Positions 34,159-61,102 of a DNA stretch of 64,000 bases are shown here, piece by piece (positions within the stretch are counted from its first letter, which is position 1; each line of letters opens with the position of its first letter). The position numbers and the translations under genes are program-made. The DNA lies in NCBI GenBank assembly GCA_039586365.1, contig JBDHKN010000006.1, positions 1 through 64,000 on the forward strand. The letters are read 5' to 3'. Source of the stretch: Gemmatimonadota bacterium (lineage in GTDB: Bacteria; Gemmatimonadota; Gemmatimonadetes; Gemmatimonadales; GWC2-71-9). The notes under the pieces were generated by a model. It worked only from the letters and a program-made list of their open reading frames with translations. It searched no databases and was not told the origin of the DNA.

Positions 34159-35184
34159 TCAGCCGTGGGTTTCTTGCCACCAGCGGGCGTAGTCCAACGC
34201 TGCATAAGAGAATATCAGGTCTGCACCGGCGCGCGATATCCCCAAGAGCGCCTCTGTCATGCAGGCCCGGTAGTCGAGCCAACCCCTATCCGCCGCCGCT
34301 TTGATCATGGAGTATTCTCCGCTCACTTGGTATGCGGCGATTGGTAGTGCAGTACCTTTCCGGAGCCGGCTTATCACGTCGAGGTAGGGAAGAGCTGGTT
34401 TGACCATTAGGATGTCCGCACCCTCATCCTCGTCGAGCATGGCCTCGACTGACGCTTCGCGGGCGTTTGCCGGGTCAATCTGGTAAGTCTTTTTGTCCGT
34501 GGGGACGTTTGGGGCGGCAGCCGGGGCGGAATCGAGCGCCTCCCGAAATGGTCCGTAGTACCCCGAGGCATACTTTGCGGTGTAACTCAGAATAGCCACG
34601 TCAAACGCCTCTGCCGCGTCTAGGGCAGCGCGGATGGCGGCGACCCGCCCATCCATCATGTCGGACGGAGCGACCATGTCTGCACCGGCTTCCGCATGCA
34701 GCACGGCCATCCTGGCCAACATATCTACGGTTTCATCGTTGAGTATTGTCCCATCTGGAGAGACCAGTCCGTCGTGTCCATGACTCGAATAGGGGTCAAG
34801 AGCGATATCAGTGACAATGTAGGCTTCGGGGATCGCTTGCTTCAGAGTCTGAACCGCTTGGCAGAGCAGGTTGTCCGGATTCACCGCCTCCTGCGCATCA
34901 GGTGTCTTGCGAGATGGATCGATGGCAGGGAACAGAGCGAAAGCACCTAGGCCCAGCGAAAGGGCCTCCTTACATCGCTTGATGATTAGATCTACCGACA
35001 GGCGGGCATGGCCAGGCATCGCTTCGATCGGCTGGGATATGTTCCGACCAGCTACTGTGAACAGCGGCAGGACCAGGTGGTTGGGCCCGAGGTTGGCCTC
35101 CTGTACCAAGCCACGTATGACGGCGTTGCGTCGCAGTCGGCGGGGGCGACGCCACGGACGGGGAAGTTCGGACAGCGAATGCAT
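34159..35184 (-). CDS. hemB: Porphobilinogen synthase (Asp-type metal site)
   Basis: RPRRLR, DIALDPYSSHGHDG, APSDMMDGR, MVKP, YQVSGEY. Confidence 0.96.
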   Translation of the reverse strand: MHSLSELPRPWRRPRRLRRNAVIRGLVQEANLGPNHLVLPLFTVAGRNISQPIEAMPGHARLSVDLIIKRCKEALSLGLGAFALFPAIDPSRKTPDAQEAVNPDNLLCQAVQTLKQAIPEAYIVTDIALDPYSSHGHDGLVSPDGTILNDETVDMLARMAVLHAEAGADMVAPSDMMDGRVAAIRAALDAAEAFDVAILSYTAKYASGYYGPFREALDSAPAAAPNVPTDKKTYQIDPANAREASVEAMLDEDEGADILMVKPALPYLDVISRLRKGTALPIAAYQVSGEYSMIKAAADRGWLDYRACMTEALLGISRAGADLIFSYAALDYARWWQETHG

Positions 35185-35310
35185 GCTACGTTCCTTTCGC
35201 CACTACAGTCAGTCAAGCTATCGCCTTCGAAAGTAATTGACCCACCGCCAAGCTCGAGCGATAGGGGGGAGTCTGTCCGTTGTGAGCTGCAGCACACCAA
35301 GACCCGTAAA

Positions 35311-35397
35311 CGTGACAAAAATCTCGCAAGGCCTTGACTCGGGTCCGCCGAGCGCTAAAATGAGAAAAGTCGCACAAACGTGACGAATATCTCGCAA
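35311..35397 (+). promoter_or_regulatory. rex promoter flanked by two operator-like sites
   Basis: CGTGACAAAAATCTCGCAA (35311), TTGACT(35334)-N16-TAAAAT(35356), CGTGACGAATATCTCGCAA (35379). Confidence 0.75.
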
Positions 35398-36075
35398 AGC
35401 GCCAGCGAAGGCAGTGTTCCGTCGCTGAGCGGAGGTGCTTTGGCACGCCTTAGAAGATTGGTACTCGAACGATTGATGCGGTACTATCGGTTCCTCTCGG
35501 GATCGACGGGCAGGAAGTCGCCCAAGACAGTCACGAGTGCTCAAATCGCCGAGGCTCTGGATCTCGATCCCACCCAAGTGCGCAAGGATTTCGGTGCCAT
35601 CGGTCTCCTCGGCATGGGCCGAGTCGGATTCGATAGATGTGAGGTATGCCGTTCTATCAGGGTGGTCATGGGTTTCGACCAGGAATATGAGGCAGTGGTG
35701 ATAGGCGCCGGTAACCTGGGTGCCGCACTCATGACTTATTCTGGGTTTGATTCCTATGGGTTGCGCATAGTGGCGGCCTTCGACAATGACCGGCGTGTCA
35801 TAGGCCGTAAAATCGCAGGACATAAGATTCAATCCACCAGGTCGCTCACGCCGTTCATCAAAAAGCATGCGATTCGCCTCGCTATCCTCACGACGCCGGT
35901 CGAGGTGTCTCAGAAGGTCACGGATCGTCTGGTAGCGACCGGCATAGAGGCGATCTGGAACTTCACTCCCACTCACCTCGTGGTACCGCCGAGCGTATTC
36001 GTGCGGAACGAGCACATTTCGCTGGGTTTGTCGGTGCTCGCGTACCATTTGAAGGAAGACGCGGCGGAGGAGTAG
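35380..36075 (+). CDS. rex: Redox-sensing transcriptional repressor Rex
   Basis: RLMRYYRFL, TSAQIAEAL...TQVRKDF wHTH, IGAGNLGAAL dinucleotide motif, AIWNFTP; start uncertain. Confidence 0.93.
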   Translation: MTNISQSASEGSVPSLSGGALARLRRLVLERLMRYYRFLSGSTGRKSPKTVTSAQIAEALDLDPTQVRKDFGAIGLLGMGRVGFDRCEVCRSIRVVMGFDQEYEAVVIGAGNLGAALMTYSGFDSYGLRIVAAFDNDRRVIGRKIAGHKIQSTRSLTPFIKKHAIRLAILTTPVEVSQKVTDRLVATGIEAIWNFTPTHLVVPPSVFVRNEHISLGLSVLAYHLKEDAAEE

Positions 36076-36176
36076 GCGGCCGTGGCGTCCCCCGGGGATT
36101 TCCCGAAAATAATGCCAAGGATTTCTGAAGGGTCGTGCTGCCGCATTGCCCTTGGCGCCCAGTCCCAATGGTAAAT

Positions 36177-36394
36177 CGTGACGATAATCTCACATACTCA
36201 TGAGATATCGTGATAAATATCTCGTAATCCTTCGCAATGCACTTGCCTCCGCCGGACCGGGCTGCCAGATTGAATCGTGACAAAAATCTCACACTGAGCA
36301 GGTTTACCGTGACAAATATCTCACAAGGCCTTGACGGGGGTGTTTCACGAGCTAATATGAGCTTGAGCGTGAAATCGTGACAAAAATCTCACAA
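36177..36394 (+). promoter_or_regulatory. aprBA promoter with five operator-like sites
   Basis: CGTGA-N8-TC(A/G)(C/T)A at 36177, 36209, 36276, 36308, 36376; TTGACG(36331)-N16-TAATAT(36353). Confidence 0.8.
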
Positions 36395-36590: not shown

Positions 36591-37058
36591 ATGCCAAGTT
36601 TCGTAAACCCGGACAAATGTGACGGATGCAAGGCTCTCGACAAGACGGCCTGTCAGTTCATTTGCCCGAACGACCTCATGGTCTTGAACAAGGATACCAT
36701 GAAGGCCTTCAACCAGGATCCACAGATGTGCTGGGAGTGCTACAGCTGCGTGAAGATCTGTCCGACGCAGGCGATTGAGGTACGTGGGTACGCTGACTTC
36801 GTGCCGCTGGGAGCGAGTGTTACGGCGATGCGCAGTACCGAGGACATCATGTGGACGGTTCAGTTCCGCAGTAAGGAGATCAAGCCGAAGCGGTTCAAGT
36901 TTCCCCACCGTAGGGGTGTTGAGGAAGGCAAAGCACAGCCATTCGATCACTATCCGACGGGCGACGATGATATCAAGAGCCCGACCTTGATGTGTGAGCC
37001 AGCCGGACTGAATACCGATAGAGGTCCGGTGAAAATGGACAAGGTGCCGACGGTGTAG
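36591..37058 (+). CDS. aprB: Adenylylsulfate reductase beta subunit
   Basis: MPSFV..KCDGCKALDKTACQFICPNDLM, CWECYSCVKICP, VRGYADF. Confidence 0.97.
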   Translation: MPSFVNPDKCDGCKALDKTACQFICPNDLMVLNKDTMKAFNQDPQMCWECYSCVKICPTQAIEVRGYADFVPLGASVTAMRSTEDIMWTVQFRSKEIKPKRFKFPHRRGVEEGKAQPFDHYPTGDDDIKSPTLMCEPAGLNTDRGPVKMDKVPTV

Positions 37059-37122
37059 TCGAGCACGGTCATGCAAAGAACTTGTTTCTTCGGCTGAGGA
37101 AACTCCAAGGAGAAGAGCGAAA

Positions 37123-39015
37123 ATGCCGAAATTTGAAACCGTAACGGTTGAGACGGACCTGCTGATCTGCGGCGGCGGGATGGCCGCCTGCGGTGCAGCT
37201 GTGGAAGCGGCGTACTGGGCCAAAAGGCATGGGCTGAAGGTCACGGTGGTCGACAAGGCGGCGATGGACCGCTCTGGGGCTGTCGCGATGGGCCTCTCTG
37301 CCATCAACCAGTACGTGGACCTGAACAGCGGTAACAACACGCTGAACGATTACATCGACTACGTCCGCAACGACCTCATGGGTATCACGCGTGAGGATCT
37401 GGTAGCGAGCATCGCACGTCACGTGGACTCGACTGTCCACCTCTTCGAGAAGTGGGGTCTGCCCATCTGGAAGGACCAGGACGGCAACTATGTCCACGAG
37501 GGTCGTTGGCAGTTGATGATCAATGGTGAGTCGTACAAAGTCATCGTTGCCGAGGCAGCCAAGAACGCCCTGGCTGAGGCCGGTGGGGAGTACTTCGAGC
37601 GCGTCTTCATAACCCACCCACTGATGGACGGTGACAAGTGCGTGGGTGCGATTGGCTTCAGCGTCAGAGAGAACAAGGTGTATGTCTTCAAGGCCAAGGC
37701 CACGTTGGTGGCCATGGGTGGAGCGGTGCACGTGTTCAAGCCGCGCTCCACTGGTGAGGGCTTCGGCCGTTCCTGGTATCCGCCGTTCAACTCCGGCGCC
37801 AGCGCCTTTTTCACAATCTATGCCGGTGCCGAGATGACCTGTCAGGAAGTCCGGTTCATTCCGGTGCGCTTCAAAGACGCGTACGGACCGGTCGGTGCGT
37901 GGTTCCTGCTATTCAAGTCTATCGCAACGAATGCTTACGGCGGCAACTACATGCAGGACAACGCCGCAGAGCTCGACAAGTGGGAGCCCTACGGCAAGGT
38001 GAAGCCGCGTCCCGCCAACATCCGCAATTGGCTGATGATGTTGGATGTAATGGAAGGCAAGAGCCCCATCTACATGCAGACAGCCGATGCCATCAAGGCA
38101 ATTGCCGACAAAGCACCGGACGAGAAGGCCGCTAAGAAGAAGCTGAAGGAGCTGGAAGCAGAAGCTTGGGAGGACTTCCTCGACATGACGATCTCGCAGG
38201 CGATTCTCTGGGCTGCAACGAATGTCGAGCCCGAAAGGAAGCCGTCCGAGATCATGGCTTGTGATCCCTACTTCATCGGCTCCCACTCCGGTGCGTCCGG
38301 GGCTTGGGTCTCTGGACCGGAAGACCTCCAGACTGCGGAGACCAAGGCTGAGTACTTCTGGGGCTATCCGCACATGACGACGGTCAAAGGGATGTTCGCC
38401 GCGGGTGACGCCTCGGGAGCTTCGAGCCACAAGTTCTCATCCGGCTCGCACGCCGAAGGCCGTATTGCCGCCAAGGGAGCCATCTCCTACATCGTCGACA
38501 ACAACACCCCACCCAACGTGGACCAGAAGCAGGTCGACGCGTTGACAGAGGAGATCCTGAAGCCACTCGACACCTTTGAGCAGTTCAAGGGTGCCACGAC
38601 TGATCCGAACATCAATCCCAACTACATCCGCCCAACGCAGTTCATGTACCGGCTGCAGAAGATCATGGACGAGTATTCGGGTGGTGTGTCGAGTCAGTTC
38701 AAGACCAATGACAAGCTCCTCGAGAAGGGCATGGAGTTGCTGGGTTACCTCAAGGAAGATGCTGGTCAACTCGCGGCGGAGAACCTACACGAGCTGATGC
38801 GGTGCTGGGAGAACGTCCATCGGATGTTCCAGGCGGACGCGCACATGCGTTCCATTCTCTTTCGTGAGGAGACTCGTTGGCCAGGTTACTACTTCCGGGC
38901 TGACAAGCCAAGCATGGACGACAAGAATTGGCTCGCCTTCTGCAATTGTGTTTACAAGAAGGACACGGGCGAGTGGGAGATGATCAAGAGGCCTGTCAAG
39001 CGCATCACAGCGTAG
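37123..39015 (+). CDS. aprA: Adenylylsulfate reductase alpha subunit
   Basis: DKAAMDRSGAVAMGLSAIN, WQLMINGESYK, RFKDAYGPVGAWFLLFK, HKFSSGSHAEGR. Confidence 0.98.
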   Translation: MPKFETVTVETDLLICGGGMAACGAAVEAAYWAKRHGLKVTVVDKAAMDRSGAVAMGLSAINQYVDLNSGNNTLNDYIDYVRNDLMGITREDLVASIARHVDSTVHLFEKWGLPIWKDQDGNYVHEGRWQLMINGESYKVIVAEAAKNALAEAGGEYFERVFITHPLMDGDKCVGAIGFSVRENKVYVFKAKATLVAMGGAVHVFKPRSTGEGFGRSWYPPFNSGASAFFTIYAGAEMTCQEVRFIPVRFKDAYGPVGAWFLLFKSIATNAYGGNYMQDNAAELDKWEPYGKVKPRPANIRNWLMMLDVMEGKSPIYMQTADAIKAIADKAPDEKAAKKKLKELEAEAWEDFLDMTISQAILWAATNVEPERKPSEIMACDPYFIGSHSGASGAWVSGPEDLQTAETKAEYFWGYPHMTTVKGMFAAGDASGASSHKFSSGSHAEGRIAAKGAISYIVDNNTPPNVDQKQVDALTEEILKPLDTFEQFKGATTDPNINPNYIRPTQFMYRLQKIMDEYSGGVSSQFKTNDKLLEKGMELLGYLKEDAGQLAAENLHELMRCWENVHRMFQADAHMRSILFREETRWPGYYFRADKPSMDDKNWLAFCNCVYKKDTGEWEMIKRPVKRITA

Positions 39016-39030
39016 GCTAAATAGATCTGC

Positions 39031-39071
39031 CAGGATTCTTGGGCGTCGCGGTGCGGCGTCCGAGGGTCCTG
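39031..39071 (+). other. 19-bp RNA stem-loop after aprA
   Basis: CAGGATTCTTGGGCGTCGC-GGT-GCGGCGTCCGAGGGTCCTG pairs fully with five G-U wobbles; no U-tract. Confidence 0.7.
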
Positions 39072-39198
39072 ACTCCTGAATCAACTTCGATTTTCCTTCG
39101 TGCAAGTCCGAAGGCGTCTTTACAGACTGTGGGGCCGTGAACGGATGATCGCGGTTCCCGGACCAATCCGAAGGACCGTTGAGCAACCGAGGAATCCC

Positions 39199-39483
39199 AT
39201 GGCAGACACACGTCGAACCTGCCCCCACTGCGGATCCCACCTCAAGAAGTGGTTGGTTCCGGCTGAGGCGAGCTGGAGCGAGGAGTTCTTCTTTGTCTGT
39301 TTCAATGACGACTGCTCCTACTATAAGGACGGCTGGCGCTGGATGAAAGAGAAGTACAACCAAGAAGCTTCCTATCGATACATGATCAATCCAACTACCG
39401 GTGCCGCATCGATGATACCAGTGTGGTCTGACTCCGCAACTCGGGAAATGGTGGTGGAGGATGCCGAAGGAGATGAAGCATGA
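39199..39483 (+). CDS. Hypothetical Zn-ribbon-like protein (94 aa)
   Basis: CPHCG...CFNDDC, aromatic-rich; GAGGA RBS; ATGA overlap with next gene. Confidence 0.75.
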   Translation: MADTRRTCPHCGSHLKKWLVPAEASWSEEFFFVCFNDDCSYYKDGWRWMKEKYNQEASYRYMINPTTGAASMIPVWSDSATREMVVEDAEGDEA

Positions 39484-40370
39484 GCGACGGTCAGGACTCC
39501 CCGACCAGGGACCAACGTGAACAGCTGCAAGAGAAGATATTGACGGAATACCCTCGGCTCGGGCGGGACGACACGTTCCAGTTCTCTTGTCACCCCGGCG
39601 TGTCCTGCTTCAACAAGTGCTGCGGCGACGTCAACATATTCCTTTCTCCATATGATGTACTGCGAATGAAGCGGCGGCTCGGCATGAGTTCGACCGCTTT
39701 TCTGGACAAATACGCCCTCATGCCCGTTCAGAAGGACATGAAGACACCCGTCGTCATGCTGCGTATGAACGAGGACGATACTAAGAGTTGCCCTCACTTG
39801 ACGGGCGGGGGGTGCGGCATCTACTCGGACCGACCATGGCCTTGTCGCATGTATCCGTTGGGGTTGGCGGCACAAAAGGATACGTCAGATGGATGGCGGG
39901 GTGATCGGTTCTATTTCGTGCTGCAAGAAGAAGGGTGTAAGGGATTCGGGGAAGGGCAGCAGTGGACGGTGCAGCAGTGGCTCGATGACCAAGGCATCGG
40001 CGAGTACGACGAATGGGGAGAAGCGTTCAAGGAACTGGCGCTTCACAAGTTCTTCGAGGAAGGTGGCGTCCTTTCACCTGAGAAGATGCACATGTTCTTC
40101 ACTGCGTGCTACGACTTGGACAAGTTCCGGGAGTTCGTGTTCGGTAGCACGCTGTTGCAGCGGTTCGAGATGGACGAAGACTTCGTTGAAGAAATGCGCT
40201 ACGAGGATGAAGCGTTGTTGCGGTTCGCGTTCTTGTGGCTGCGATTCAGTCTCTTCGGCGAGCCAACAATGAAGGTGAAGAAGGGCGTTTTCGAAGCCTT
40301 CAAGGGAAGCGTCGACAAGAAGCGGTTGTTCGACAGAGAGTTGGTCAAGACCTCCGAAGGGGATGCATGA
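39480..40370 (+). CDS. YkgJ-family cysteine-cluster protein
   Basis: FSCHPGVSCFNKCC, LSPYD, CPHL...CGIYSDRPWPCRMYP. Confidence 0.85.
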   Translation: MSDGQDSPTRDQREQLQEKILTEYPRLGRDDTFQFSCHPGVSCFNKCCGDVNIFLSPYDVLRMKRRLGMSSTAFLDKYALMPVQKDMKTPVVMLRMNEDDTKSCPHLTGGGCGIYSDRPWPCRMYPLGLAAQKDTSDGWRGDRFYFVLQEEGCKGFGEGQQWTVQQWLDDQGIGEYDEWGEAFKELALHKFFEEGGVLSPEKMHMFFTACYDLDKFREFVFGSTLLQRFEMDEDFVEEMRYEDEALLRFAFLWLRFSLFGEPTMKVKKGVFEAFKGSVDKKRLFDRELVKTSEGDA

Positions 40371-41635
40371 TGAGCGGGCATGGCAAGAAGGGAAAGATCC
40401 TCGTGGTTGGTGGCGGGATCAGCGGTGTGACTGCAGCTGTGGAAGCAGCCGAGGCGGGTTGCGAGGTGGTGCTGGTGGAGAGGAATCCGTACTTGGGTGG
40501 CCGGGTGGCTCAAATGAACCAGTACTTCCCGAAACTCTGTCCGCCCAATTGCGGCTTGGAGATAAACTTCCGTCGCATGAAGACCAATCCGCGGATTCAA
40601 ATTCTAACGACGTCGGAAGTCGAGCAGATCACTGGTGCACCGGGCCACTACAAGGCAACGATCCGCCAGCATCCGCGGTTTGTAAACAGTAAATGCACCG
40701 GTTGCGGCGCATGCGTAGATGCTTGTCCAGTGGAGCGGCCCGACGCATTCAACTACGGAATGGGGTCGACCAAGGCAGTGTACCTGCCCTACGAGATGGC
40801 CTACCCGATGCGGTTCGTGATCGACGGCAGCGTGTGCCCCGGAGCAGAGTGCGGCAAGTGCGTACCGGCGTGTCCCTACGATGCCATCGACCTGGCCATG
40901 CAACCGGGGGTAATCGAACTGGAAGTCCAGGCGGTTGTCTGGGCCACCGGCTGGGACCCCTACGATGCGAAGAAGATCGAAGGTCTGGGTTTTGGGACAT
41001 ATCCGAACGTGATAACCAATGTCATGATGGAGCGGCTGGCTGCACTCGGTGGTCCCACTGCAGGAAAGATTCAGCGACCCTCGGATGCCAAGGAAATCGA
41101 GTCGGCAGCGTTCGTTCAGTGTGCCGGTTCTCGCGACGAAAACTACCTGAAGCACTGCTCTGGAGTGTGCTGTCTCGGATCGCTCAAGCAGGCCCGCTAC
41201 GTTCGCGAACAGTATCCCGAGGCGCAGATCTACATCTTCTACATCGACATCCGCGCACCAGGTCGGCTCGAGGATTTCTTCGTGGCGACCGAGGCAGACG
41301 AGAGACTCACTCTGATCAAAGGCAAAGTCGCTAAGATCGTCGAAGATTCGGCTAGTGGCGATCTGCAGGTCGAGGCGGAGGACACGCTCTCGGGTGAGCG
41401 GGTGATACAGAAGGTAGATCTCGTTGTGCTGGCGACAGGTTTGGTGCCAAACGGTGCCGGTGCCACACAGGTCGAGGGTGGCTTGTCGACCGATGAGGAC
41501 GGGTTCCTGCAGACCGAGCAGTCGCTTGGTGGACTGCTGGCCGCCGGATGTGCTAAGCGCCCGACGGAAGTGGCAACATGTGTTCGTGATGCCACCGGCG
41601 CTGTAGCAAAGGCTTTGCACTTCAGCGGGGAGTAG
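40367..41635 (+). CDS. qmoA: QmoA (HdrA-like flavoprotein)
   Basis: VVGGGISG, YFPKLCPPNCGLEIN, inserted ferredoxin motifs, QCAGSRD...CSGVCC; next to aprA. Confidence 0.92.
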   Translation: MMSGHGKKGKILVVGGGISGVTAAVEAAEAGCEVVLVERNPYLGGRVAQMNQYFPKLCPPNCGLEINFRRMKTNPRIQILTTSEVEQITGAPGHYKATIRQHPRFVNSKCTGCGACVDACPVERPDAFNYGMGSTKAVYLPYEMAYPMRFVIDGSVCPGAECGKCVPACPYDAIDLAMQPGVIELEVQAVVWATGWDPYDAKKIEGLGFGTYPNVITNVMMERLAALGGPTAGKIQRPSDAKEIESAAFVQCAGSRDENYLKHCSGVCCLGSLKQARYVREQYPEAQIYIFYIDIRAPGRLEDFFVATEADERLTLIKGKVAKIVEDSASGDLQVEAEDTLSGERVIQKVDLVVLATGLVPNGAGATQVEGGLSTDEDGFLQTEQSLGGLLAAGCAKRPTEVATCVRDATGAVAKALHFSGE

Positions 41636-41639
41636 AGCG

Positions 41640-43883
41640 GTGGAAAAGAAAGTAGCCGTTTACATATGCCAAGGTTGCGATATCGGAGCCTCGTTGGATG
41701 TCGGGGCGCTGAGCAAGGTTGCCACTGGTGAGTGCAACGCGGCGATTTGCCGTGACCACGAATGTCTCTGCTGCGACGAAGGCCGCGAAATGATAAAGCA
41801 GGATGTCCGGGAGGGCGCCAACGCTCTGGTGGTCGCTGCCTGCTCACCGCGCTTCATGACTGACGTCTTCATGTTCGATGGGTGCCGGACGGAACGGGTG
41901 AACTTGCGGGAGCACGTGGTCTGGAGCCACGAGCCAAACGACGAAGACACCCAGATGCTCGCTGACGACTATCTGCGCATGGGGGTAGCGCGGGCAAAGA
42001 AAGCGGAACTGCCCGATTCCTTCGAGACAGAGATCAACAAGACTGTTCTCGTGGTAGGGGGCGGGGCGACGGGCATGACGGCAGCCTTGGACGCAGCTGG
42101 TGCTGGCTACGAAGTGGTGCTGGTGGAAAGAGAGGAACAACTGGGTGGCTGGGCCGGCAAGTTCAAGTATCGGTTCCCGCTGAGTGCACCCTACCGAGAG
42201 CTGGAGTTGGTCGATCTCAAGCCGCGCATTGAAGCGGTCGAGAGCAATGAACGGATCAAGGTCTACAAAGGTGCCACGATAGGGCGCATTGACGGACAGC
42301 CCGGACAGTTTGATGTCTCTGTCAAGGCCAATGGCTCGTCAGCCGAGTTCCGTGTCGGCGCTATCGTGCAGGCAACGGGCTGGAAGCCATACGACGCGTC
42401 CAAACTTGGCCACTTGGGATACGGTCGCTGCCCCAACGTGATCACCAACGTTGAGATGGAGGAGTTGATCGCTGCCGGCAAGATCAACCGTCCCTCCGAT
42501 GGTAAGCCCGCCCGTCGCATTGCCTTCATCCAGTGCGCGGGATCTCGCGATAAGGAACACTTGCCGTACTGCTCGGGAGTGTGTTGTCGCGTGACGATCA
42601 AGCAAGCGATGGTTGCCCGGCAGTACGACTCGGAGACTGAGGCCTACGTGCTCTACAAGGACATCCGCACGCCGGGTCAATACGAGGACTTTTATCGCCG
42701 GGCTCAAGAAGACAGCGGCATCTTCTTCACCAAGGCGGAGGTCGTGGGTGTCGAGGAGACGGGAGAGCACAACCTGCAGGTGGAAGCAAAGGACACGCTG
42801 CTCGGTGACAGGATCTTGGTCGAGGCCGACTTGGTCGTCTTGGCCACCGGTATGGTGCCCACCGCGGCTGATGGAGAGCTAATCCGCCGCTTCGTAGACG
42901 CCAAGGCGGTCGTCGCAAAAGGCGAAGCAGGTGCACAACTGGAAGCGGCCAAGAAGACGGTGGAGGAACTGCAGCATGTTGAGGGAACCTCGATTCTCAA
43001 TTTGACCTATCGGCAGGGACCGGACCTCCCGTCTCTCAAATACGACTTCCCCGACTCGCATTTCATCTGTTTCCCTTACGAGACACGACGCACCAGTATC
43101 TATACGGCCGGCTGCCTGCGCGCACCGAGTGATTCCCTGGTTTCTATGGAGGACGGTGCCGGTGCTGCGCTCAAGGCAATTCAGAGCCTAGAGTTGGCCG
43201 CCAAAGGAGAGGCGGTGCATCCTCGTTGGGGTGATGCTTCCTTTCCCGACTTCTTCCTGCAGCGGTGTACGCAGTGCAAGCGGTGCACTGAGGAATGCCC
43301 CTTTGGAACTCTGAACGAGGATGTCAAGGGCACGCCGCAACCCAATATCACTCGCTGCCGCCGGTGCGGCATTTGTATGGGCGCGTGTCCCGAACGGATC
43401 ATCTCGTTCAAAGACTACTCCGTAGAAATCATCTCCTCGATGATCAAATCGGTTGAGATCCCCGACGAGTTCGAGGAGAAGCCTCGTCTGCTCGGCCTGA
43501 TCTGTGAGAATGATGCCTATCCCACTCTTGACACAGCCGGCCTCAAGCGAATCAAGCACAGCGCGTTCATTCGCCTTATACCGGTGCGGTGCCTGGGATC
43601 CGTAAACATCGTCTGGATTGCCGACGCTTTGTCGCGTGGCTTTGACGGAATCCTGCTAGTCGGATGCAAGTCGGGCGACGACTACCAGTGCCATTTCATC
43701 CGCGGCAGCGAACTGATGGGCACGCGAAGCGACAACATCCGTGAGAAGCTCACCCAACTGGCCCTGGAAGAGGAACGCGTGCGGCTGGAGCAACTGCCTA
43801 TCTCCGAATACGAGAGGCTACCGCAAATCATCAACGAGTTTGCGGAGCAGATTGAAGAGATTGGATTGAACCCGTTCAAGTGA
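41640..43883 (+). CDS. qmoB: QmoB (HdrA-MvhD fusion)
   Basis: AACSPR, QCAGSRD, FICFPYETRRT, CTQCKRCTEECP, CENDAYP, GCKSGDDYQCHF. Confidence 0.95.
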   Translation: MEKKVAVYICQGCDIGASLDVGALSKVATGECNAAICRDHECLCCDEGREMIKQDVREGANALVVAACSPRFMTDVFMFDGCRTERVNLREHVVWSHEPNDEDTQMLADDYLRMGVARAKKAELPDSFETEINKTVLVVGGGATGMTAALDAAGAGYEVVLVEREEQLGGWAGKFKYRFPLSAPYRELELVDLKPRIEAVESNERIKVYKGATIGRIDGQPGQFDVSVKANGSSAEFRVGAIVQATGWKPYDASKLGHLGYGRCPNVITNVEMEELIAAGKINRPSDGKPARRIAFIQCAGSRDKEHLPYCSGVCCRVTIKQAMVARQYDSETEAYVLYKDIRTPGQYEDFYRRAQEDSGIFFTKAEVVGVEETGEHNLQVEAKDTLLGDRILVEADLVVLATGMVPTAADGELIRRFVDAKAVVAKGEAGAQLEAAKKTVEELQHVEGTSILNLTYRQGPDLPSLKYDFPDSHFICFPYETRRTSIYTAGCLRAPSDSLVSMEDGAGAALKAIQSLELAAKGEAVHPRWGDASFPDFFLQRCTQCKRCTEECPFGTLNEDVKGTPQPNITRCRRCGICMGACPERIISFKDYSVEIISSMIKSVEIPDEFEEKPRLLGLICENDAYPTLDTAGLKRIKHSAFIRLIPVRCLGSVNIVWIADALSRGFDGILLVGCKSGDDYQCHFIRGSELMGTRSDNIREKLTQLALEEERVRLEQLPISEYERLPQIINEFAEQIEEIGLNPFK

Positions 43884-43900
43884 CCCTAGGAGCGCCGAGG

Positions 43901-45072
43901 ATGTCCGAGGCCCTATTGTTGAAACCGGACCGGAAGTTCGTCGAGGCGATCGTCGCATCAGGTGGTGACGGATCTGGGCTCAGTGGGGTCTCAGAGACCG
44001 TCTAATGGCGGACCCTGACATCTGGCTTTGCCACCAGTGCAACGACTGTTCCAAGAAATGCCCGCGCGGGGCACGACCGGGTGACGTGCTCGCAGCGGTA
44101 CGCAAACAAGCGGTGCAGTACCATTCGGCTCCGCGGTTTCTTGGCAACTTGGTGAATCGCACCAAGTACTTCCCGCTGCTGTTCATGGCTTTGCCGGCAA
44201 TACTACTGGCGCTGGCACTTACGGTTCGCGAGCCCCTGGAGCAGTTGCTCTCGCTCGGTGAGCCCCACGAAGCTCTGTACGCTGCGTTTTTCCCCCATTG
44301 GCTGCTGATCGGGTTCTACGCGTCCTTCACGGGTTTGGCCTTCATCGGTGCTGTGGTAGGCGTTGTGCGGTTCTGGCAAGCGATGCGAGTTGCTGACGCA
44401 GGTACCGATTCGGGACCACAGACTCTCGGAGTTGTACCCAGTATGGTACGGACCCTCAGATCGATCCTCTTCCATGACAAGTTCGCCAAGTGTACGGATC
44501 AAGCCTCTCGGCGCTGGACGCATTTGCTGGCTTTCTACGGTTTCGTAGCGTTGTTCGTGGTCACGATCTGGGCGACCATCGACCTTTACTTAATGCCCGT
44601 ATTTGGAGTGGATTCGCTCTATCCCTTTGACCTTCTTCACCCTATGAAGCTGCTCGCGAACGTAGGTGGTGTGGTGTTGGTGGTCGGGTGTGTGAAGGCG
44701 ATAACTGACCGCAGGCGTAGCCAATCGTCGGTCACCACGGCATTCGACAATCTCTTTGTTTGGTTGCTGCTGGGTGTGGCCGTTACGGGGTTCCTGACTG
44801 AGGTGTTCCGGTTCGCAATAGAGGGCGCAGGGCAATCAGGACTGACATTCAGCGCCTATTTCACGTATTTCGTACACCTGGTACTGGTGTTCGGGCTGCT
44901 GGTTTACCTGCCCTATTCGAAGTTCGCTCACTTGATATACCGCACGGTTGCTCTGGTTTACGCCGAGCATTCTGGACGGAACTTAGACGGTCGCCAACTG
45001 CTGCCGGCGGCAGGCGCCCGGCCGCAGATTGAATCTCATGCTGACAAGGCCATCGAGGCCGCAAACGCGTGA
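43901..45072 (+). pseudogene. qmoC: QmoC interrupted by an internal deletion and frameshift at ~43970
   Basis: MSEALLLKPDRKFVEAIVASGGD from 43901, then IWAQWGLRDRLMADPDIWLCHQCNDCSKKCPRGA in another frame from 43972, followed by the TM/heme-b domain (PYSKFAH). Confidence 0.85.
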
Positions 45073-45086
45073 CAGGGGAACAAAAC

Positions 45087-46319
45087 ATGGATCAGCTAGT
45101 CAAGCCACATGGCAAAGAAAAGAAGCTCAAGCCCCTTATTCTCAAGGGCAAGGAGCTTGGTGAGGAACAGAAGAAAGCCGAGTCTCTCAAGAAGATCACC
45201 ATGACTTCACGCGAGACGGGAGATGCCATCATGATGGGCATCGGCGGGTTCACACCGCTCGATGGCTTCATGGGCAGTGCCGACTGGAAGGGTGTCTGCA
45301 CGGACATGAAGCTGAGCGACGGAACGTTCTGGCCGATTCCCGTGACTGTGTCGGCTACGAAGCATGACGCCGACTCGATCAAAGAGGGTCAGGAAGTGAC
45401 CCTGGTCGACGAAGAGACCGGGACCAACATGGCCACAATGAAGGTGACGGAAAAGTACACCATCGATAAGCAGTTGGAGTGCAAAGAAGTGTACAGGACG
45501 GATGATTCGGAACATCCCGGCGTAGCGATGGTGATGGCGCAGGAGGACTTCAATCTGGGCGGGCCAATCAAGGTTCTGAGTGAGAGTTACTTCCCAGAGG
45601 AGTTCAAAGATGTCTACATGCGGCCCGCTGAGTCGCGGCAGCTGTTCAATGAGAAGGGGTGGCGGACCGTAGCTGCGTTGCAGTTGCGCAACCCGATGCA
45701 CCGCTCGCACGAGTACCTGGCCAAGATCGCTTTGGAAGTTCTGGACGGCCTGTTTATCCATCAATTGGTCGGCAAACTGAAACCGGGCGACATACCGGCC
45801 GATGTTCGAGTCAACTGTATCAACACTTTGGTGGAGAACTACTTCCTGAAGGACTCGGTTGTTCAGGGCGGTTACCCACTCGACATGCGCTACGCTGGGC
45901 CACGCGAGGCCCTACTCCACGCGGTGTTTCGGCAGAACTATGGATGCAGTCACTTGATTGTGGGCCGTGACCACGCTGGAGTAGGTAGCTACTACGGACC
46001 GTTCGACGCGCAAGAGATCTTCCATGAGATACCGGCGGGAGCACTCGAGACCCAACCGCTGAAGATCGACTGGACCTTCTACTGCTTCAAGTGTCGCGGC
46101 ATGGCTTCCATGAAGACCTGCCCGCATGGCAAGGATGACCGGCTTCTATTGAGCGGCACGGTTCTGAGAAAGACTCTCTCGGAGGGTGGAGATCCACCAG
46201 ATGACTTCAGCCGTCCTGAGGTGTTGGCCATTCTGAAGGACTACTACTCCGGTCTGGAAGAGAAGGTCGAGATAAAGCTACACCAGTTCGCAACGGGGGA
46301 TGTGAAGAAGAAGAAGTGA
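45087..46319 (+). CDS. sat: Sulfate adenylyltransferase
   Basis: [40 protein letters not shown]. Confidence 0.97.
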
Positions 46320-46485
46320 AGGATTGGCCGTACGTGAAGACCGTGCCACAGTACACGGCTGACCTGTGAGCGTATCGCTCGAGTGAACGGCTTCGCCGCG
46401 GGCAACTAACAGCGACATGTAGACCGCAACCAGGCCATGATGAGCGGCCAGATGTGAAACGTGGGCCCAAGAACGGAGGACGTAG

Positions 46486-46803
46486 ATGGAACAGAAGGAA
46501 TTCGGTGGTAGGCTGCTAGAAATCGACGAGGACGGATTCATCCAGGATCCCGATGCTTGGGATCAGGCCGTTGCCGCCGATCTTGCGAAGACCGAAGGCG
46601 TTGACAACATGACGGACGATCACTGGAAGGTCGTCAACTATTTGAGGGAGTACTATCTCGAGTACAACATGGCTCCCATGATCCGCAAGCTTTGCAAGCA
46701 GACGGGCTTCAAGCTGAAGGAGATCTACGATCTGTTTCCCAGCGGCCCGGCGAAGGGTGCCTGTAAGGTGGCTGGACTTCCCAAGCCTACCGGCTGTGTG
46801 TGA
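46486..46803 (+). CDS. dsrC: DsrC sulfur-carrier protein
   Basis: DEDGF, HWKVV, LFPSGPAKGACKVAGLPKPTGCV with both C-terminal cysteines. Confidence 0.97.
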   Translation: MEQKEFGGRLLEIDEDGFIQDPDAWDQAVAADLAKTEGVDNMTDDHWKVVNYLREYYLEYNMAPMIRKLCKQTGFKLKEIYDLFPSGPAKGACKVAGLPKPTGCV

Positions 46804-46936
46804 TCTGAGTGACTCGCGGGCCGGACTAATGCCGCACGCGTTGTCCGGCCGCGAGCCGCAATAGGAGCAACTTGGATCGCTCAGCCAGCTGGCCGCTGGC
46901 TGACACTCACTGGCAACAAAGGAGGAGGGCAGGATC

Positions 46937-47470
46937 TTGTCTCTGGACGTACTGTTGCGCAACAGTGAAGATGCCATCCTTTCGAGATGGTTAGACGACG
47001 CATTGGCTGTGTATCCCGGAGATTCAGCTGCAATATTCAAGCGCGAGAAGGATCCCTTCGCCAACCCCATTGGACGCAGCCTCCGGGAAGGAACGCGAGG
47101 AATTCTCCGTGCCCTAGTGAACGGAAAGAATGCCGAAGTGGTGCGCCAACATGTGTCCGAGATCATGAGGATCGGGGCGGTGCAACAGCATTCGCCCTCC
47201 CGGGCAATCGGTTTCCTGTTTTCTCTCAAGGGTGCGATCCGAGCTGAACTGCATGGAGCAGTCACGCAAGCCGAATATTCGTCCGCGTTGGCGGAACTAG
47301 ACAACCAGATCGATCAGATTGGTCTGATGGCCTTCGACATCTACGTCCAGTACAGAGAGCAAGTGTGCGAGCTACGCATCAACGAAGTCAAGCGGCAGGT
47401 CTCTCGGATTGTGGACAAGATGAACAGGCGTGTTCCTGATCAGGAATTGGTCCAGATCGATCACCCATGA
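46937..47470 (+). CDS. dsrT: DsrT (RsbRD N-terminal-like)
   Basis: KDPFANPIG, IMRIGAVQ, AFDIYVQYRE; immediately upstream of dsrM. Confidence 0.85.
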   Translation: MSLDVLLRNSEDAILSRWLDDALAVYPGDSAAIFKREKDPFANPIGRSLREGTRGILRALVNGKNAEVVRQHVSEIMRIGAVQQHSPSRAIGFLFSLKGAIRAELHGAVTQAEYSSALAELDNQIDQIGLMAFDIYVQYREQVCELRINEVKRQVSRIVDKMNRRVPDQELVQIDHP

Positions 47471-47510
47471 GAGTGTCGGTGGGAGTGAACGTGAGAAGGA
47501 AGGGTTTCTG

Positions 47511-48500
47511 ATGAACATCCTGGTGCCCCTCTTAGGTGTGGGTGGGCTCTTCCTGCTGGGCTTACTCGGTGCAGCAGCCGGAATGCAGTGGCTTTTCGGT
47601 ATTCTGTTACCCTACGTTGCCCTGGCTCTCTTTCTCGGCGGTCTGATATACCGGGTCATTAGTTGGGCGAACATCCCCGTTCCTTTCCGGATCCCGACAA
47701 CATGTGGGCAGCAGAAGTCACTGCCTTGGATTAGGCAGCAAAAGCTGGACAATCCCAGCACCACGCTTGGTGTCGTAGGGAGAATGGCGCTGGAGGTACT
47801 CTTCTTCCGCTCGTTGCTGAGGAACACCAAGACCGCATTGGTCGATGGCGACAAGCTTGCCTATGGAACTGATCTATCGCTTTGGCTCGGAGCCATGGCG
47901 ATGCACTGGTCGCTGTTGATAGTCCTGATCAGACACCTGCGGTTTTTCACCAATCCGGTCCCCTCCCTTGTGACATTTATTGAACAGACTGACGGGTTCA
48001 TGGAGGTGGGTCTGCCGGTCATCTTCGCGACCACAATCGTATTCGCTGTGGCATTGGCATATCTGCTATACAGGAGGGTCGCCAATCCCCAGGTGAGATA
48101 CATCTCACTGGCCGGCGACTACTTCGCGCTGTTTCTGCTGTTGGGAATCGGTATGAGCGGATTCTGGCTCAGGCACCTGGCCAAGACAGACGTAACAGCA
48201 GTCAAAGAACTCGTCCTGGGATTGACGTATTTCGCGCCCAGCGTCCCAGACGGAATAAGCCCACTGTTCTTTGGGCACCTCTTTCTGGTGTCTGTGCTGC
48301 TGAGCTACTTCCCGGTCAGTAAGCTGCTGCACATGCCCGGTGTGTTTCTGAGCCCGACTCGGAACATGGCAAACAACAATCGAGCGGTTAGGCACGTGAA
48401 CCCGTGGGATTACCCCGTCAAAGTGCACAGCTACGAAGAGTATGAGGATGAACTCAGGGACAAGATGAAAGCGGCCGGCATCCCGGTCGAGAGGCAATAG
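47511..48500 (+). CDS. dsrM: DsrM membrane cytochrome b
   Basis: PVPFRIPTTCGQQKSL, RHLRFF, SKLLHMPGVFLSPTRN. Confidence 0.95.
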   Translation: MNILVPLLGVGGLFLLGLLGAAAGMQWLFGILLPYVALALFLGGLIYRVISWANIPVPFRIPTTCGQQKSLPWIRQQKLDNPSTTLGVVGRMALEVLFFRSLLRNTKTALVDGDKLAYGTDLSLWLGAMAMHWSLLIVLIRHLRFFTNPVPSLVTFIEQTDGFMEVGLPVIFATTIVFAVALAYLLYRRVANPQVRYISLAGDYFALFLLLGIGMSGFWLRHLAKTDVTAVKELVLGLTYFAPSVPDGISPLFFGHLFLVSVLLSYFPVSKLLHMPGVFLSPTRNMANNNRAVRHVNPWDYPVKVHSYEEYEDELRDKMKAAGIPVERQ

Positions 48501-48504
48501 ATCG

Positions 48505-50148
48505 ATGTCAAAGCCGGACGAATCAGACTATTACAGGCAGGAAGACCTGCTGAAGCTGGACTGGCGCCCCCCCAATACGGCGTGGATGGACACTCCTGTG
48601 GACATCAGGCCGGGTTCGTTCATATATCCCGGCAAAGCCAAGAATCTCAAGGTTCTGGACTTGCCGAATCCGAGGGACTGGGCGGTAACGGACGACGACT
48701 GGAAGCTTCCTGAGGGCTGGAAGCGGACTGTCTTGGAGGGGATGGCGGAGCGGCTGAAGCGATATCGCACGTTCAGGATCTTCATGGACACCTGTGTACG
48801 TTGCGGGGCCTGCGCAGATAAGTGCCACTTCTTCATCGGTAGTGGTGACCCAAAGAACATGCCGGTACTCCGGGCCGAACTGCTGCGGTCCATCTACCGC
48901 AAGGATTTCACGGCGCTGGGTAGGGTCTTCGGCAGGCTGGCTGGCGGCCGCGAACTCACCGAAGACGTGATCAAGGAGTGGTTTTACTACTTCTTCCAGT
49001 GTACTGAGTGTAGGCGTTGCTCGGTCTTCTGTCCTTACGGCATCGACACGGCCGAGATCACTATGATCGGGAGGGAGCTGCTGGGCCTCCTCGGGGTTTA
49101 CGTAAACTGGGTGATCGAGCCGGTCGCAAACTGCTACAAGGTGGGAAACCACTTGGGAATACAGCCACACGGCCTGGCGGACACCTTGGAGTTCATGGCG
49201 GGTGACATCGAAGAAGCGACTGGCATCAAAGTCGACATCCCGATCAACAAGAAGGGCGCTGAGATCCTTTTCGTCACCCCGTCGGGCGATTTCGTGGCCG
49301 ATCCTGGAATCTACACGTGTATGTCCTATATGCTGCTGTTCCATGAACTGGGGATCGACTACACCTGGAGTACGTACGCTTCTGATGGGGGCAATTTCGG
49401 GCTGTTCACATCACATGAGATGATGAAACGCCTCAACGCCAAGATCTACGCCGAGGCCAAGCGTTTGGGAGTAAAGTGGATCTTGGGAGGCGAGTGCGGC
49501 CACATGTGGAGGGTAATCCATCAGTACATGGATACCATGAATGGTCCGGCTGACTTCCTGGAGGTGCCTCAGTCTCCCATAACAGGAACCGTGTTCGAGA
49601 ACGCTCGATCCACAAAGATGACGCACCTGATGGAGTTCACTGCTGACCTAATCCGGCATGGAAAGCTGAAGCTCGATCCCTCACGCAATGACCACATCAG
49701 GGTCACCTTCCACGACTCGTGTAACCCGGCCCGAGCCATGGGCATCTTTGAAGAACCACGCTACGTCTTGCGAAATGTGTGCAACAACTTCTTCGAGATG
49801 CCCGAGAACACCATACGGGAGCAAACGTTTTGCTGTGGAGGTGGTGCCGGGCTGGGAACGGACGAGAACATGGAGATGCGGTTGCGCGGTGGCCTTCCGA
49901 GGGGTAACGCGGTGAGGTACGTGCAAGAGAAGCACGGGGTGAATCAGCTTGCCGCGATGTGTGCTATCGACCGGGCAACCCTGGTGACCGTGTGTGACTA
50001 CTGGGCACCTGGAGTCAAGGTGACCGGTATCAGCGAGCTGGTTGCAAATGCCATGATCTTCCGGGGTGAGAACAAGCGGACGCACAACCTACGTTTGGAA
50101 CCGATCCCTGGGATGGGAGCTGAGGAGGGGGAACCCAGCGATGACTGA
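48505..50148 (+). CDS. dsrK: DsrK (HdrD-like Fe-S protein)
   Basis: CVRCGACADKC, CTECRRCSVFCP, GECGH, HDSCN, CCGGG. Confidence 0.96.
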   Translation: MSKPDESDYYRQEDLLKLDWRPPNTAWMDTPVDIRPGSFIYPGKAKNLKVLDLPNPRDWAVTDDDWKLPEGWKRTVLEGMAERLKRYRTFRIFMDTCVRCGACADKCHFFIGSGDPKNMPVLRAELLRSIYRKDFTALGRVFGRLAGGRELTEDVIKEWFYYFFQCTECRRCSVFCPYGIDTAEITMIGRELLGLLGVYVNWVIEPVANCYKVGNHLGIQPHGLADTLEFMAGDIEEATGIKVDIPINKKGAEILFVTPSGDFVADPGIYTCMSYMLLFHELGIDYTWSTYASDGGNFGLFTSHEMMKRLNAKIYAEAKRLGVKWILGGECGHMWRVIHQYMDTMNGPADFLEVPQSPITGTVFENARSTKMTHLMEFTADLIRHGKLKLDPSRNDHIRVTFHDSCNPARAMGIFEEPRYVLRNVCNNFFEMPENTIREQTFCCGGGAGLGTDENMEMRLRGGLPRGNAVRYVQEKHGVNQLAAMCAIDRATLVTVCDYWAPGVKVTGISELVANAMIFRGENKRTHNLRLEPIPGMGAEEGEPSDD

Positions 50149-50521
50149 CAAGGCAAAGGCAATTGCCGGTCTGGCTGTCTTCGTCGTTCTGGTGACATAT
50201 CCCTTCTGGTCCGGGCTGGGATCTGATGCAGAAGCTGGCGCACCCGAGCTGGAGCTGCCCGAGGACGAAGCCAATTGTGTGGAAGAGACGCAGTTTATGA
50301 CGGCGAACCACATGGACTTGTTGAACCAATGGCGGAACGCGGTAGTGCGCGACGGCGAAAGGGAGTACATGTCGACCTCAGGTGAACGGCACGTGATGAG
50401 CCTGACCGGTACGTGTATGGGATGTCACAGCAACAGGGACGCGTTTTGCACGCGGTGTCATGACTACTCGGACGTGTCACCGGCCTGCTGGGATTGTCAT
50501 GTCGAGCCGGAAGGGAGCTGA
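50141..50521 (+). CDS. dsrJ: DsrJ triheme cytochrome c
   Basis: N-terminal anchor, HMDLL, CMGCH, CTRCH, CWDCH. Confidence 0.95.
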   Translation: MTDKAKAIAGLAVFVVLVTYPFWSGLGSDAEAGAPELELPEDEANCVEETQFMTANHMDLLNQWRNAVVRDGEREYMSTSGERHVMSLTGTCMGCHSNRDAFCTRCHDYSDVSPACWDCHVEPEGS

Positions 50522-50524
50522 ACG

Positions 50525-51328: not shown

Positions 51329-51370
51329 CTTGCTACGCGCGACAATCGGGAGAACCAAGAGGTAGCCGCT

Positions 51371-52531: not shown

Positions 52532-52574
52532 AAGAAGGAGCGGTAACAACGCCATCATTCCAAGACCAAAGGAG

Positions 52575-53801: not shown

Positions 53802-53863
53802 AGCAACCGGATCAGTGGATCCGACAGAGCATTAAAAAACAATCGTTCTTGGGAGATATATCG

Positions 53864-54940: not shown

Positions 54941-54950
54941 GAGGTGTACG

Positions 54951-55196: not shown

Positions 55197-55222
55197 GCTG
55201 TCTCCCGGGGGGAAAGTGATGT

Positions 55223-55271
55223 CAGATGCATGCACTCTCCGCTCCCAGCGGGCGGAAGAGGCGTGTGTCTG
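55223..55271 (+). other. Long RNA stem-loop after dsrD
   Basis: CAGATGCATGC pairs with GCGTGTGTCTG (3 G-U); inner CTCT/AGAG and CCGCTC/GGGCGG. Confidence 0.6.
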
Positions 55272-55308
55272 TGACGATAGATAATCACGTGTCACGCGAG
55301 GTGATCGT

Positions 55309-56985: not shown

Positions 56986-56989
56986 CCTT

Positions 56990-58399: not shown

Positions 58400-58411
58400 G
58401 AGGACGGAACC

Positions 58412-61083: not shown

Positions 61084-61102
61084 CAGAACATGAGGCATCG
61101 CA

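Follow-up and report, generated by a model that had tools for sequence, protein, structure and literature searches.

A cluster-linked Rex paralog and an array of conserved, asymmetric candidate operators at the rex2 and aprBA promoters of a Gemmatimonadota bacterium

The subject of this work is a 64,000-nt window of a Gemmatimonadota genome (GCA_039586365.1, contig JBDHKN010000006.1; the whole assembly comprises 5.44 Mb), in which a Rex-family gene, here termed rex2, precedes a co-oriented cluster led by aprB and aprA and in which seven copies of one operator-like box lie around these genes (Table 1). Close relatives carry the label Gemmatimonadota. The product of rex2 matches NF003994 with 207.9 bits (cut-off 130), and aprB, aprA, qmoC, sat, dsrC, dsrM, dsrA, and dsrB are all above their NCBIfam cut-offs, which confirms the naming of rex and aprBA as neighbors in an earlier note on this DNA. 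Two of the boxes (1 and 2) stand before rex2 and five (3 to 7) between rex2 and aprB, all on the plus strand, with motif strings at 35311, 35379, 36177, 36209, 36276, 36308, and 36376, where 0.06 matches are expected and none of 100 shuffles reached seven. The gaps from box to box are 68, 798, 32, 67, 32, and 68 bp, and an offset of 99 bp separates the two 32-bp pairs. The earlier note had listed these seven strings, their common orientation, and the two 32-bp pairs, all of which hold. We propose that the boxes are likely the operators of the adjacent Rex variant. Comparison with relatives supports both this assignment and autoregulation, the boxes being placed at the promoter of rex2 itself as well as at that of aprBA, as the note had also suggested.

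Table 1. Features of the rex2-aprBA region. Each box spans 22 bp; bit scores are from a matrix built on relatives only, with the window left out, and box centers are counted from the inferred starts.
Feature	Position	Strand	Details
Box 1	35308..35329	+	centered at about -49.5 from inferred rex2 start; 4 bp before -35; 36.0 bits
Box 2	35376..35397	+	centered at about +18.5, downstream of inferred rex2 start; 68 bp from box 1; 29.6 bits
Box 3	36174..36195	+	about -180.5 from inferred aprB start; 28.3 bits
Box 4	36206..36227	+	about -148.5 from inferred aprB start; 32 bp from box 3; 29.7 bits
Box 5	36273..36294	+	about -81.5 from inferred aprB start; 67 bp from box 4; 33.3 bits
Box 6	36305..36326	+	about -49.5; 4 bp before aprB -35; 32 bp from box 5; 27.5 bits
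Box 7	36373..36394	+	about +18.5, downstream of inferred aprB start; 68 bp from box 6; 37.4 bits
Predicted sigma-70 promoter of rex2	35334..35361	+	-35 at 35334-35339, 16-bp spacer, -10 at 35356-35361
Predicted sigma-70 promoter of aprBA-led cluster	36331..36358	+	-35 at 36331-36336, 16-bp spacer, -10 at 36353-36358
rex2	35440..36075	+	211 aa, TTG start behind GGAGG site; Rex-family, separate clade
Rex2 wing G58-F64	35611..35631	+	GMGRVGF; G60-R61 instead of canonical R60-G61
Rex2 C67-x-x-C70	35638..35649	+	start of helix 4 of DNA-binding domain (predicted helix 66-77)
aprBA-led candidate target cluster	36591..62072	+	co-oriented
hemB	34159..35184	-	divergent from rex2; hemL and hemC converge on hemB

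The genome-wide scan with a position weight matrix that the earlier note had put forward as a check sets the array apart from the rest of the genome. With a matrix of the seven the sites score 29-36 bits and nothing else exceeds 21.7, and with the relatives-only matrix they are again top-ranked (27.5-37.4 bits), the next best site reaching 22.3. Candidate Rex sites elsewhere in the genome lie at C68:15106, C92:13951, C130:3687, C69:22192, and C79:5718; among them, by eye, one is before an atpA-like gene (22.3 and 18.8 bits on two matrices) and one before an icd-like gene. The genome also has a second Rex gene, Rex1, on contig C59, with 36% identity to Rex2. A search of 40 relatives found the Rex1 type in most of them, with some Rex in 38 of 41 genomes, and the canonical palindrome TTGTGAA-N4-TTCACAA, with at most two mismatches, is found upstream of 25 of 26 Rex1 genes, the 26th lying at the edge of the scan. 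The seven sites do not conform to this palindrome, the Rex1 matrix giving them at most 4.4 bits against 31.4 for its own box, and they therefore form a variant operator class; the matrix's own sites lie elsewhere. What the Rex2 boxes share with canonical operators is the pair of G-x-G-A and T-C-x-C halves 6 bp apart and the location at promoters of rex and redox genes.

The earlier note had read the boxes as GTGA-N8-TCAC, with a spacer of 8 nt and asymmetric. This reading fits four of the seven window sites, whereas GTGA-N6-TCTC fits all seven, and GTGA-N8-TCAC taken alone is barely enriched in the window (6 matches where 1.4 are expected, and two of the 6 fall inside other genes). The other matches to it, at 22163 and 48093, fell below the 14-bit threshold on both matrices and were taken as chance. 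For comparison we used 75 regions drawn from 36 loci at 57-74% identity and two further stretches, each region lying upstream of a rex homolog or covering the rex-aprB interval or the 400 bp behind rex. They gave 119 related sites, each counted once and including three canonical-type boxes (L066, L068, and L069). The sites were gathered with a matrix seeded on the window's seven, which lean to C at +16, so that the collection favored the 8-nt reading. Their consensus is AAW-C-GTGA-WAAAAA-TCTC-R-N-W-W, and with the C after AAW numbered 0 (the dyad center of box 1 is at 35318.5) the positions G+1, G+3, and C+14 are invariant (119 sites each), followed by C+12 (118), A+4 (117), and T+11 (116). 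Position 0 is C in 104 of the 119 and +13 is T in 97, with A and G in 11 sites each, while +16, the outer C that is needed for N8 only, is C in 52 and with 0.07 bit unconstrained. GTGA-N6-TCNC fits 115 of the sites and N8-TCAC 36, and the information profile mirrors itself best at N6 (r 0.82, against 0.15 at N8). Motif discovery upstream of aprB and rex in related clusters, which the earlier note had also proposed, recovered the motif in the six-base register: expectation maximization from random seeds, with the window excluded, returned a 14-bp core of the form G-t-G-A-N6-T-C-t-C. Judged from the aligned sites, the box register is the ordinary six-base Rex spacing and the 8-nt reading is a mis-register, which is refuted. 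In the six-base register GTGA forms the left half and GAGA the right half.

The boxes are built into the promoters in a regular manner. Boxes 1 and 2, and likewise boxes 6 and 7, enclose a TTGAC-N-16 bp-TA-A/T-AT sequence near the sigma-70 consensus. Among 41 box pairs 55-72 bp apart (three of them from the window), 32 lie at 66-69 bp, and TTG follows the upstream box by 4 bp in 31 and by 5 bp in 2, while the distance from the -10 to the downstream box varies by several bases. The same cassette of box, -35, -10, and box, with the same geometry, is present in relatives from three phyla. Repression of ndh by FNR takes place from -50.5, and activation by CRP from -41.5 or -61.5; by comparison with these, box centers at -49.5 and +18.5 and the placing of boxes 3 to 5 upstream would be repressor-like positions. 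The phased spacing that the earlier note had proposed holds in part. Same-strand gaps below 55 bp in relatives (n = 18) are all 22, 31-32, 42, or 52 bp, within 1 bp of whole turns, and the chance of four whole-turn gap classes is about 0.6% by our own arithmetic, which lends modest support to helical phasing. The gaps of 57, 67-68, and 99 bp are not whole turns at 10.5 bp. At loose positions, boxes that share a promoter resemble each other more than boxes taken across genomes do (3.41 against 2.84 of 6; 32 pairs), which fits either co-adaptation or local copying. At the transcript level, a 13-pair hairpin (36392-36424, listed on the minus strand) extends from the end of box 7 within the predicted aprB leader of about 225 nt, and a search of 34900-36700 for structured RNA found nothing in Rfam at E up to 1. 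Four RNA runs contained 5-11% of the words, as contigs; they covered mostly aprBA of other organisms, did not extend to any box, and are uninformative either way.

Rex2 itself has the domains, the fold, and the cofactor site of the Rex family. Its winged helix (PF06971) and Rossmann domain (PF02629) are both above cut-off, its AlphaFold model has a predicted local distance difference test score of 87.7, and the top Foldseek matches are all Rex structures, with template modeling scores of about 0.8. The binding site for the oxidized and reduced forms of nicotinamide adenine dinucleotide (NAD+ and NADH) is intact, as G89, G91, and G94 of the GxGxxG loop, Tyr100, and Asp115 are present in 40 of 40 Rex2 rows, and Arg48 and Lys49 of the recognition helix occur in 120 of 120 Rex2 homologs. 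Rex2 departs from canonical Rex at T45 and in the wing, which the earlier note had correctly read as GMGRVGF: in place of Arg60-Gly61 and Tyr64, the Rex2 rows have G60 in 37, R61 in 39, and F64 in 36 of 40. A basic residue 61 is not peculiar to Rex2, since among the other Rex rows Pro occupies position 60 in 40 of 45 and Lys or Arg position 61 in 36 of 45. Just behind the wing, both cysteines of C67-x-x-C70 are found in 111 of 120 Rex2 homologs and C70 in all 120, and Cys is not among the four commonest residues at 67 or 70 in the Rex1 or other Rex rows; distant Rex representatives mostly have no such pair (21 of 150 read). For this pair a thiol or metal switch is possible, and a structural role equally so. 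Tandem rex2 copies occur in L054/L035 (genome G005) and L037 (genome G007), the second copy having no recognizable first helix.

Rex2 forms a clade of its own with 40 rows (Shimodaira-Hasegawa-like approximate likelihood ratio test 96, quick tree), its hosts are labeled Gemmatimonadota, Planctomycetota, and Thermodesulfobacteriota, and the motif is found with it. Of 37 regions upstream of rex2, 31 contain sites, as do all 22 between rex2 and aprB, and where rex2 stands away from aprBA it heads a siroheme-type operon (cbiX, cobA/hemD; checked at L044) with the box pair kept. In five whole genomes a strict form of the pattern has 23 matches and the reversed control none, and the strict matches away from rex2 lay before aprB or separate qmoAB operons, again with box pairs. 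Of 400 genomes sampled from the phylum, five contain Rex2; the strict pattern is present in four of these and in one of the 395 without Rex2 (a single match), the negative count being the independent part, as at least two of the four positive genomes had supplied training loci. The fifth Rex2 genome has weaker sites by matrix (L162). Ten of the sampled genomes have aprB, and the five of them without Rex2 gave no strict match and no matrix match within 1.5 kb of aprB. In G056, which has aprB and no Rex2, dsrA and sat are preceded by canonical-type boxes, and one of these boxes also reaches 18.3 bits with the Rex2 matrix. Among 13 further metagenome Rex2 loci, some of which duplicate earlier ones (L192 was scanned whole and L190 dropped as too short), nine score at least 19 bits. 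Divergence of the Rex2 domain correlates with site score (rho 0.52); we leave this correlation out of the argument, since the rows are related to one another and its value is driven by three Longimicrobiales-like rows.

Evidence also comes from what we propose to be a recognition code across Rex branches, examined with the register fixed and the flanks unscored at non-redundant loci upstream of rex genes, where kinship inflates the counts. Rex proteins with an RG wing and Ala or Ser at 45 have sites in 26 of 26 loci, with GTGA in 53 of 54 halves and TT as flank, and eight RG-wing loci with T45 have no site. At 44 more distant Rex loci the wing is mostly G-x-P-[KR]-x-G-[YF], and Rex2 nests among them in a quick tree. 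With the P[KR] wing and Val, Ile, or Leu at 45, sites occur in 17 of 50 loci and GATA in 42 of 46 halves; with the same wing and T45, sites occur in 13 of 24 loci, GAGA in 29 of 42 halves, and the flank is W-A/C-T-C. The Rex2 type has sites in 26 of 38 loci, with 43 GTGA and 39 GAGA halves and the flank W-W-N-Y. De novo analysis of the upstream regions of the distant branch gave the palindrome tATCGATAaAwwTtTATCGATa in the same register. Within this G-x-P-[KR] branch (L074-L117, L194-L260) the halves are ATCGATA with V/I/L45 and ATCGAGA with T45, and a literature search found no published description of its autoregulatory palindrome. Two unrelated T45 rex loci (L222 and L241) carry GTGA-N6-TCTC boxes much like those of Rex2. 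Half-site letters track residue 45 and flank letters wing residues 60-61, and this covariation points to Rex2 rather than CRP as the binder, since binding by Rex predicts the pattern and binding by CRP does not. The earlier note had connected the changed wing with altered specificity; the change is real and comparison supports a specificity other than that of canonical Rex, and what the wing follows is the flank letters, not the spacer.

We consider it quite probable that Rex2 dimers with bound NAD+ sit on either side of each promoter, where they repress rex2 as well as the aprBA-led cluster, and that NADH releases them. Going by known Rex structures, each subunit would use Arg48 and Lys49 to read the G-x-G-A of its half-site, with Thr45 and the G60-R61 wing accounting for the tolerance of GAGA and the outward-shifted A/T flank. 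The promoter geometry suggests that the upstream box would block polymerase contacts upstream of the -35, that the downstream box would block the start region, and that further boxes at three-turn spacing would contribute cooperative occupancy. As in the Rex family generally, NADH in the intact Rossmann fold would close the dimer, leading to derepression when an electron sink is needed. The most likely cause of a lopsided, oriented site for a homodimer would be contact with polymerase or with a neighboring dimer. A more far-reaching model, which as a whole we regard as unlikely, makes Rex2 a two-input sulfur-redox sensor that responds to NADH and, via C67-x-x-C70, to thiol, persulfide, or metal, and that uses oriented, lopsided operators to clamp a sigma-70 promoter on both sides, dimers being joined at two to four helical turns or across a 67-bp loop. 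It would travel with the sulfate-respiration genes across phyla and be insulated from the host Rex by the two-residue code. If the model is true, Rex2 would be the first member of its family to have a second sensory input and direction-dependent operators.

Several observations weigh against the reading proposed here. Six of the 37 upstream regions of rex2, two of them short, have no site, and four of the 13 metagenome loci do not reach 19 bits. The plus orientation of 110 of the 119 sites is not what a symmetric homodimer would by itself predict. The positive co-occurrence of pattern and protein is partly circular, and the relatives are kin and not independent. The starts from which the box positions are counted are predictions, placed 7 nt behind the -10 and so near 35368 and 36365. 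Summed core complementarity is near-equal for the two registers (3.03 at N6, 2.83 at N8), because TCTC followed by AC spells TCAC two bases on. Two CRP-type genes of this genome, on C106 and C129, encode an SRETVSR helix, and the G-x-G-A core is shared with their family. In addition, in the rex mutant of Desulfovibrio alaskensis, apsAB, dsrABD, and dsrMKJOP were not induced despite conserved sites, according to the available text of the report (PMC4045070).

That Rex2 binds GTGA and TCAC halves 8 bp apart through a widened dimer agrees with the four window sites and 36 related sites of that form and with well-matched pairs (+3:+14 1.00, +4:+13 0.80, +6:+11 0.89), and we hold it to be very unlikely: besides the free +16 and the poor mirror at N8, +13 is A or G in 22 of 119 sites, +12 has no role in N8 yet is C in 118, and sister Rex branches use N6 with the same flanks. 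Little credence can be given to degenerate sites of a host CRP/FNR-family protein controlling rex2 and aprBA. CRP-family proteins read a G-x-G-A core, the CRP consensus TGTGA-N6-TCACA resembles the boxes in its N6 register, A-rich flanks, and ATC right half, and three CRP/FNR genes in the genome are above the Pfam cut-off, with one in four of five other Rex2 hosts. TGTGA-N6-TCACA nevertheless has no match in 35300-36400, the related sites have C at 0 and T at +13 in the counts given above, no CRP gene lies on this contig, and the same motif occurs in hosts of three phyla. The near-identical GTGA/GAGA sites upstream of unrelated T45-type rex genes argue in the same direction, -49.5 and +18.5 are no CRP activation positions, and the strict pattern in one of 395 genomes without Rex2 stands beside CRP genes counted in six genomes only.

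A role for Rex1, alone or as a Rex1-Rex2 heterodimer with one half-site per subunit, would explain the asymmetry, with both genes in the genome, a Rex1-like GTGA half, and a GAGA half typical of T45-type Rex. It is extremely unlikely, given the low scores of the seven sites on the Rex1 matrix and because in 9 of 10 hosts outside the Gemmatimonadota no Rex gene besides Rex2 was found (genome completeness not given), and the sites there are equally asymmetric. Activation or holding of RNA polymerase by Rex2 at the upstream box, with the fixed 4-bp gap and the orientation reflecting polymerase contact, draws on the 31 of 41 pairs with TTG at 4 bp, the variable gap from -10 to box, and the predominance of plus sites. 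It seems very improbable to us: published accounts, in their available text, describe Rex as a repressor, the second box lies over the early transcribed region of promoters already near consensus, and common ancestry of the cassette could also fix the 4-bp gap. Finally, the gene behind aprA (39100-39483) encodes a small zinc-finger protein that might bind the boxes in the manner of P2 Ogr-like activators of TGT-N12-ACA near -55; it matches PF04606 with 31.6 bits (cut-off 26.3), was present in five of five further Rex2 hosts tested, and the 8-nt reading equals the TGT-N12-ACA site of Ogr/NucC, for which a literature search turned up no paper. We assign this next to no probability and reject it as the box binder, as TGT-N12-ACA occurs in 2 of 119 sites, and as G056 and contig C16 of this assembly have the gene with no Rex2-type box pairs and canonical-type Rex boxes instead; it also had no match among phage records.

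The cluster that would be the target of Rex2 runs in the order aprB, aprA, two small Cys-rich genes, qmoABC, sat, dsrC, an RsbRD_N gene (dsrT-like), dsrM, dsrKJOP-like genes, dsrA, dsrB, dsrD-like, dsrL-like, and dsrN-like genes, and a siroheme-synthesis gene. The labels dsrT, dsrK/J/O/P, dsrD, dsrL, dsrN, and qmoA/B are ours, taken from position and gene order rather than a curated cut-off. The Cys-rich pair between aprA and qmoA (39100-40370) has Pfam Ogr_Delta and CxxCxxCC matches. The frame at 54858-55196 between dsrB and the dsrL-like gene we take to be DsrD-like, a label that, if right, would agree with a reductive direction. On both sides the cluster is framed by tetrapyrrole and siroheme genes, hemL-hemC/hemB at 31927-35184 and cysG-N with a cobA/hemD-like gene from 61536 to about 66.5 kb, which echoes the rex2-cbiX-cobA/hemD operons in relatives. 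Beyond the window, at about 71.4-71.9 kb of the same contig, a MerR-like regulator gene (labeled by eye) lies in a nearby redox gene cluster. Elsewhere in the assembly, contig C16:1-7290 (L169, L264) carries a second sat-aprB-aprA with a divergent qmoC and no Rex2 gene; its sat, aprB, and aprA are 67-75% identical to those of the window, and canonical-type Rex boxes lie at 4497, 4573, and 4952. It may be a second acquisition or a contig of another organism. In Longimicrobiales-like hosts (L066, L068, L069), whose Rex2 wing reads GISRVGY, a canonical Rex1-type box about 70 bp before aprB accompanies diverged Rex2 boxes, as also at L162:1430, and double control is possible. In G041 (L153, L278) aprB is cut by a masked stretch or break, aprA was not found, and the rest of the cluster is 1 Mb away.

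To our knowledge, almost everything known about the transcriptional control of sulfate respiration stems from Desulfovibrio. For the clusters of uncultured Gemmatimonadota and Planctomycetota, and of some Desulfobacterota, the present analysis adds candidates for the regulator, its operator, and the layout of the promoters, and it shows how a cluster-linked pathway could be equipped with a redox switch of its own that is free of interference by the host Rex. The proposed code, residue 45 against the half-site core and residues 60-61 against the flank, would allow regulons missed by canonical-box scans to be predicted. Rex control of sulfate reduction is established in Desulfovibrio, and the failure of the 8-bp spacer makes the system less surprising than its headline suggested. 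On the comparative evidence the array is real and conserved, and the features that deserve testing are the asymmetric box specific to the paralog, the cassette at the promoters, the recognition code, and the CxxC of Rex2. With a sigma-70 cassette near consensus, the main claims are testable in E. coli and in vitro without culturing the host. The available text of PMC11451228, PMC11725836, and PMC5886521 has no variant box of this kind, and a search mostly at the level of abstracts, with RegPrecise and the supplements of regulon surveys outside it, found no published account of the Rex2 clade, its box, or a Rex CxxC.

Of the systems described so far, the Rex regulon of Desulfovibrio is among the closest. 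According to the accessible parts of the reports, mutation of rex raises sat about 11-fold in D. vulgaris (PMC7531388) and has a weak effect on sat and qmo in D. alaskensis (PMC4045070), and Rex sites are predicted at apsAB, dsrABD, and dsrMKJOP (PMC7531388, PMC4045070). There, as here, a Rex-family repressor has sites before sulfate-reduction genes, and the NADH logic is likely the same. Unlike Desulfovibrio, the present genome combines a housekeeping Rex that has canonical boxes with a second, cluster-linked paralog that has a separate, asymmetric box, and, as far as targets rather than Desulfovibrio site letters are compared, its strong sites are confined to two promoters.

The canonical Rex operator, TTGTGAA-N4-TTCACAA in the passages available to us (PMC6391272, PMC5317091), has the same dyad as the Rex2 box, the same G-x-G-A core positions, an A/T-rich center, and a place at the rex promoter. 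The Rex2 box differs from it in that -1 and +16 are free where Rex1 boxes never vary, TCTC forms the right half, A replaces T at +10, position 0 is C, the conserved flank is shifted out to -3/-2 and +17/+18, and the boxes form oriented pairs around the core promoter. A further comparison is with the TM0201 operator in the Rex-NAD+-DNA structure of Thermotoga maritima (PDB 7WB3), where, in the part of the paper available, natural GAGA and GTGA halves lie 6 bp apart, Arg48 reads G5, Lys49 reads G7 and A8, and wing residues Arg60 and Gly61 read two flanking T's (PMC8836258). The Rex of Streptococcus agalactiae is described, in the accessible text, as reading the same two guanines, with Ala47, equivalent to residue 45, contacting T6 via water (PMC8376106). 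Like TM0201, the Rex2 box has one GTGA and one GAGA half at a 6-bp distance, and there a Rex homodimer binds through Arg48 and Lys49. In T. maritima, however, GAGA is a tolerated deviation of one site, read with an R60-G61 wing and T flanks, whereas in the Rex2 boxes it is the consensus (T+13 in 97 of 119) and goes with a G60-R61 wing. With the G-x-P-[KR] branch Rex2 shares T45, the basic residue 61, the W-A-T-C-like flank, and the GAGA half, and from that branch, whose boxes are mostly symmetric, it is distinguished by Gly60, the CxxC, and the link to aprBA, qmo, and siroheme genes.

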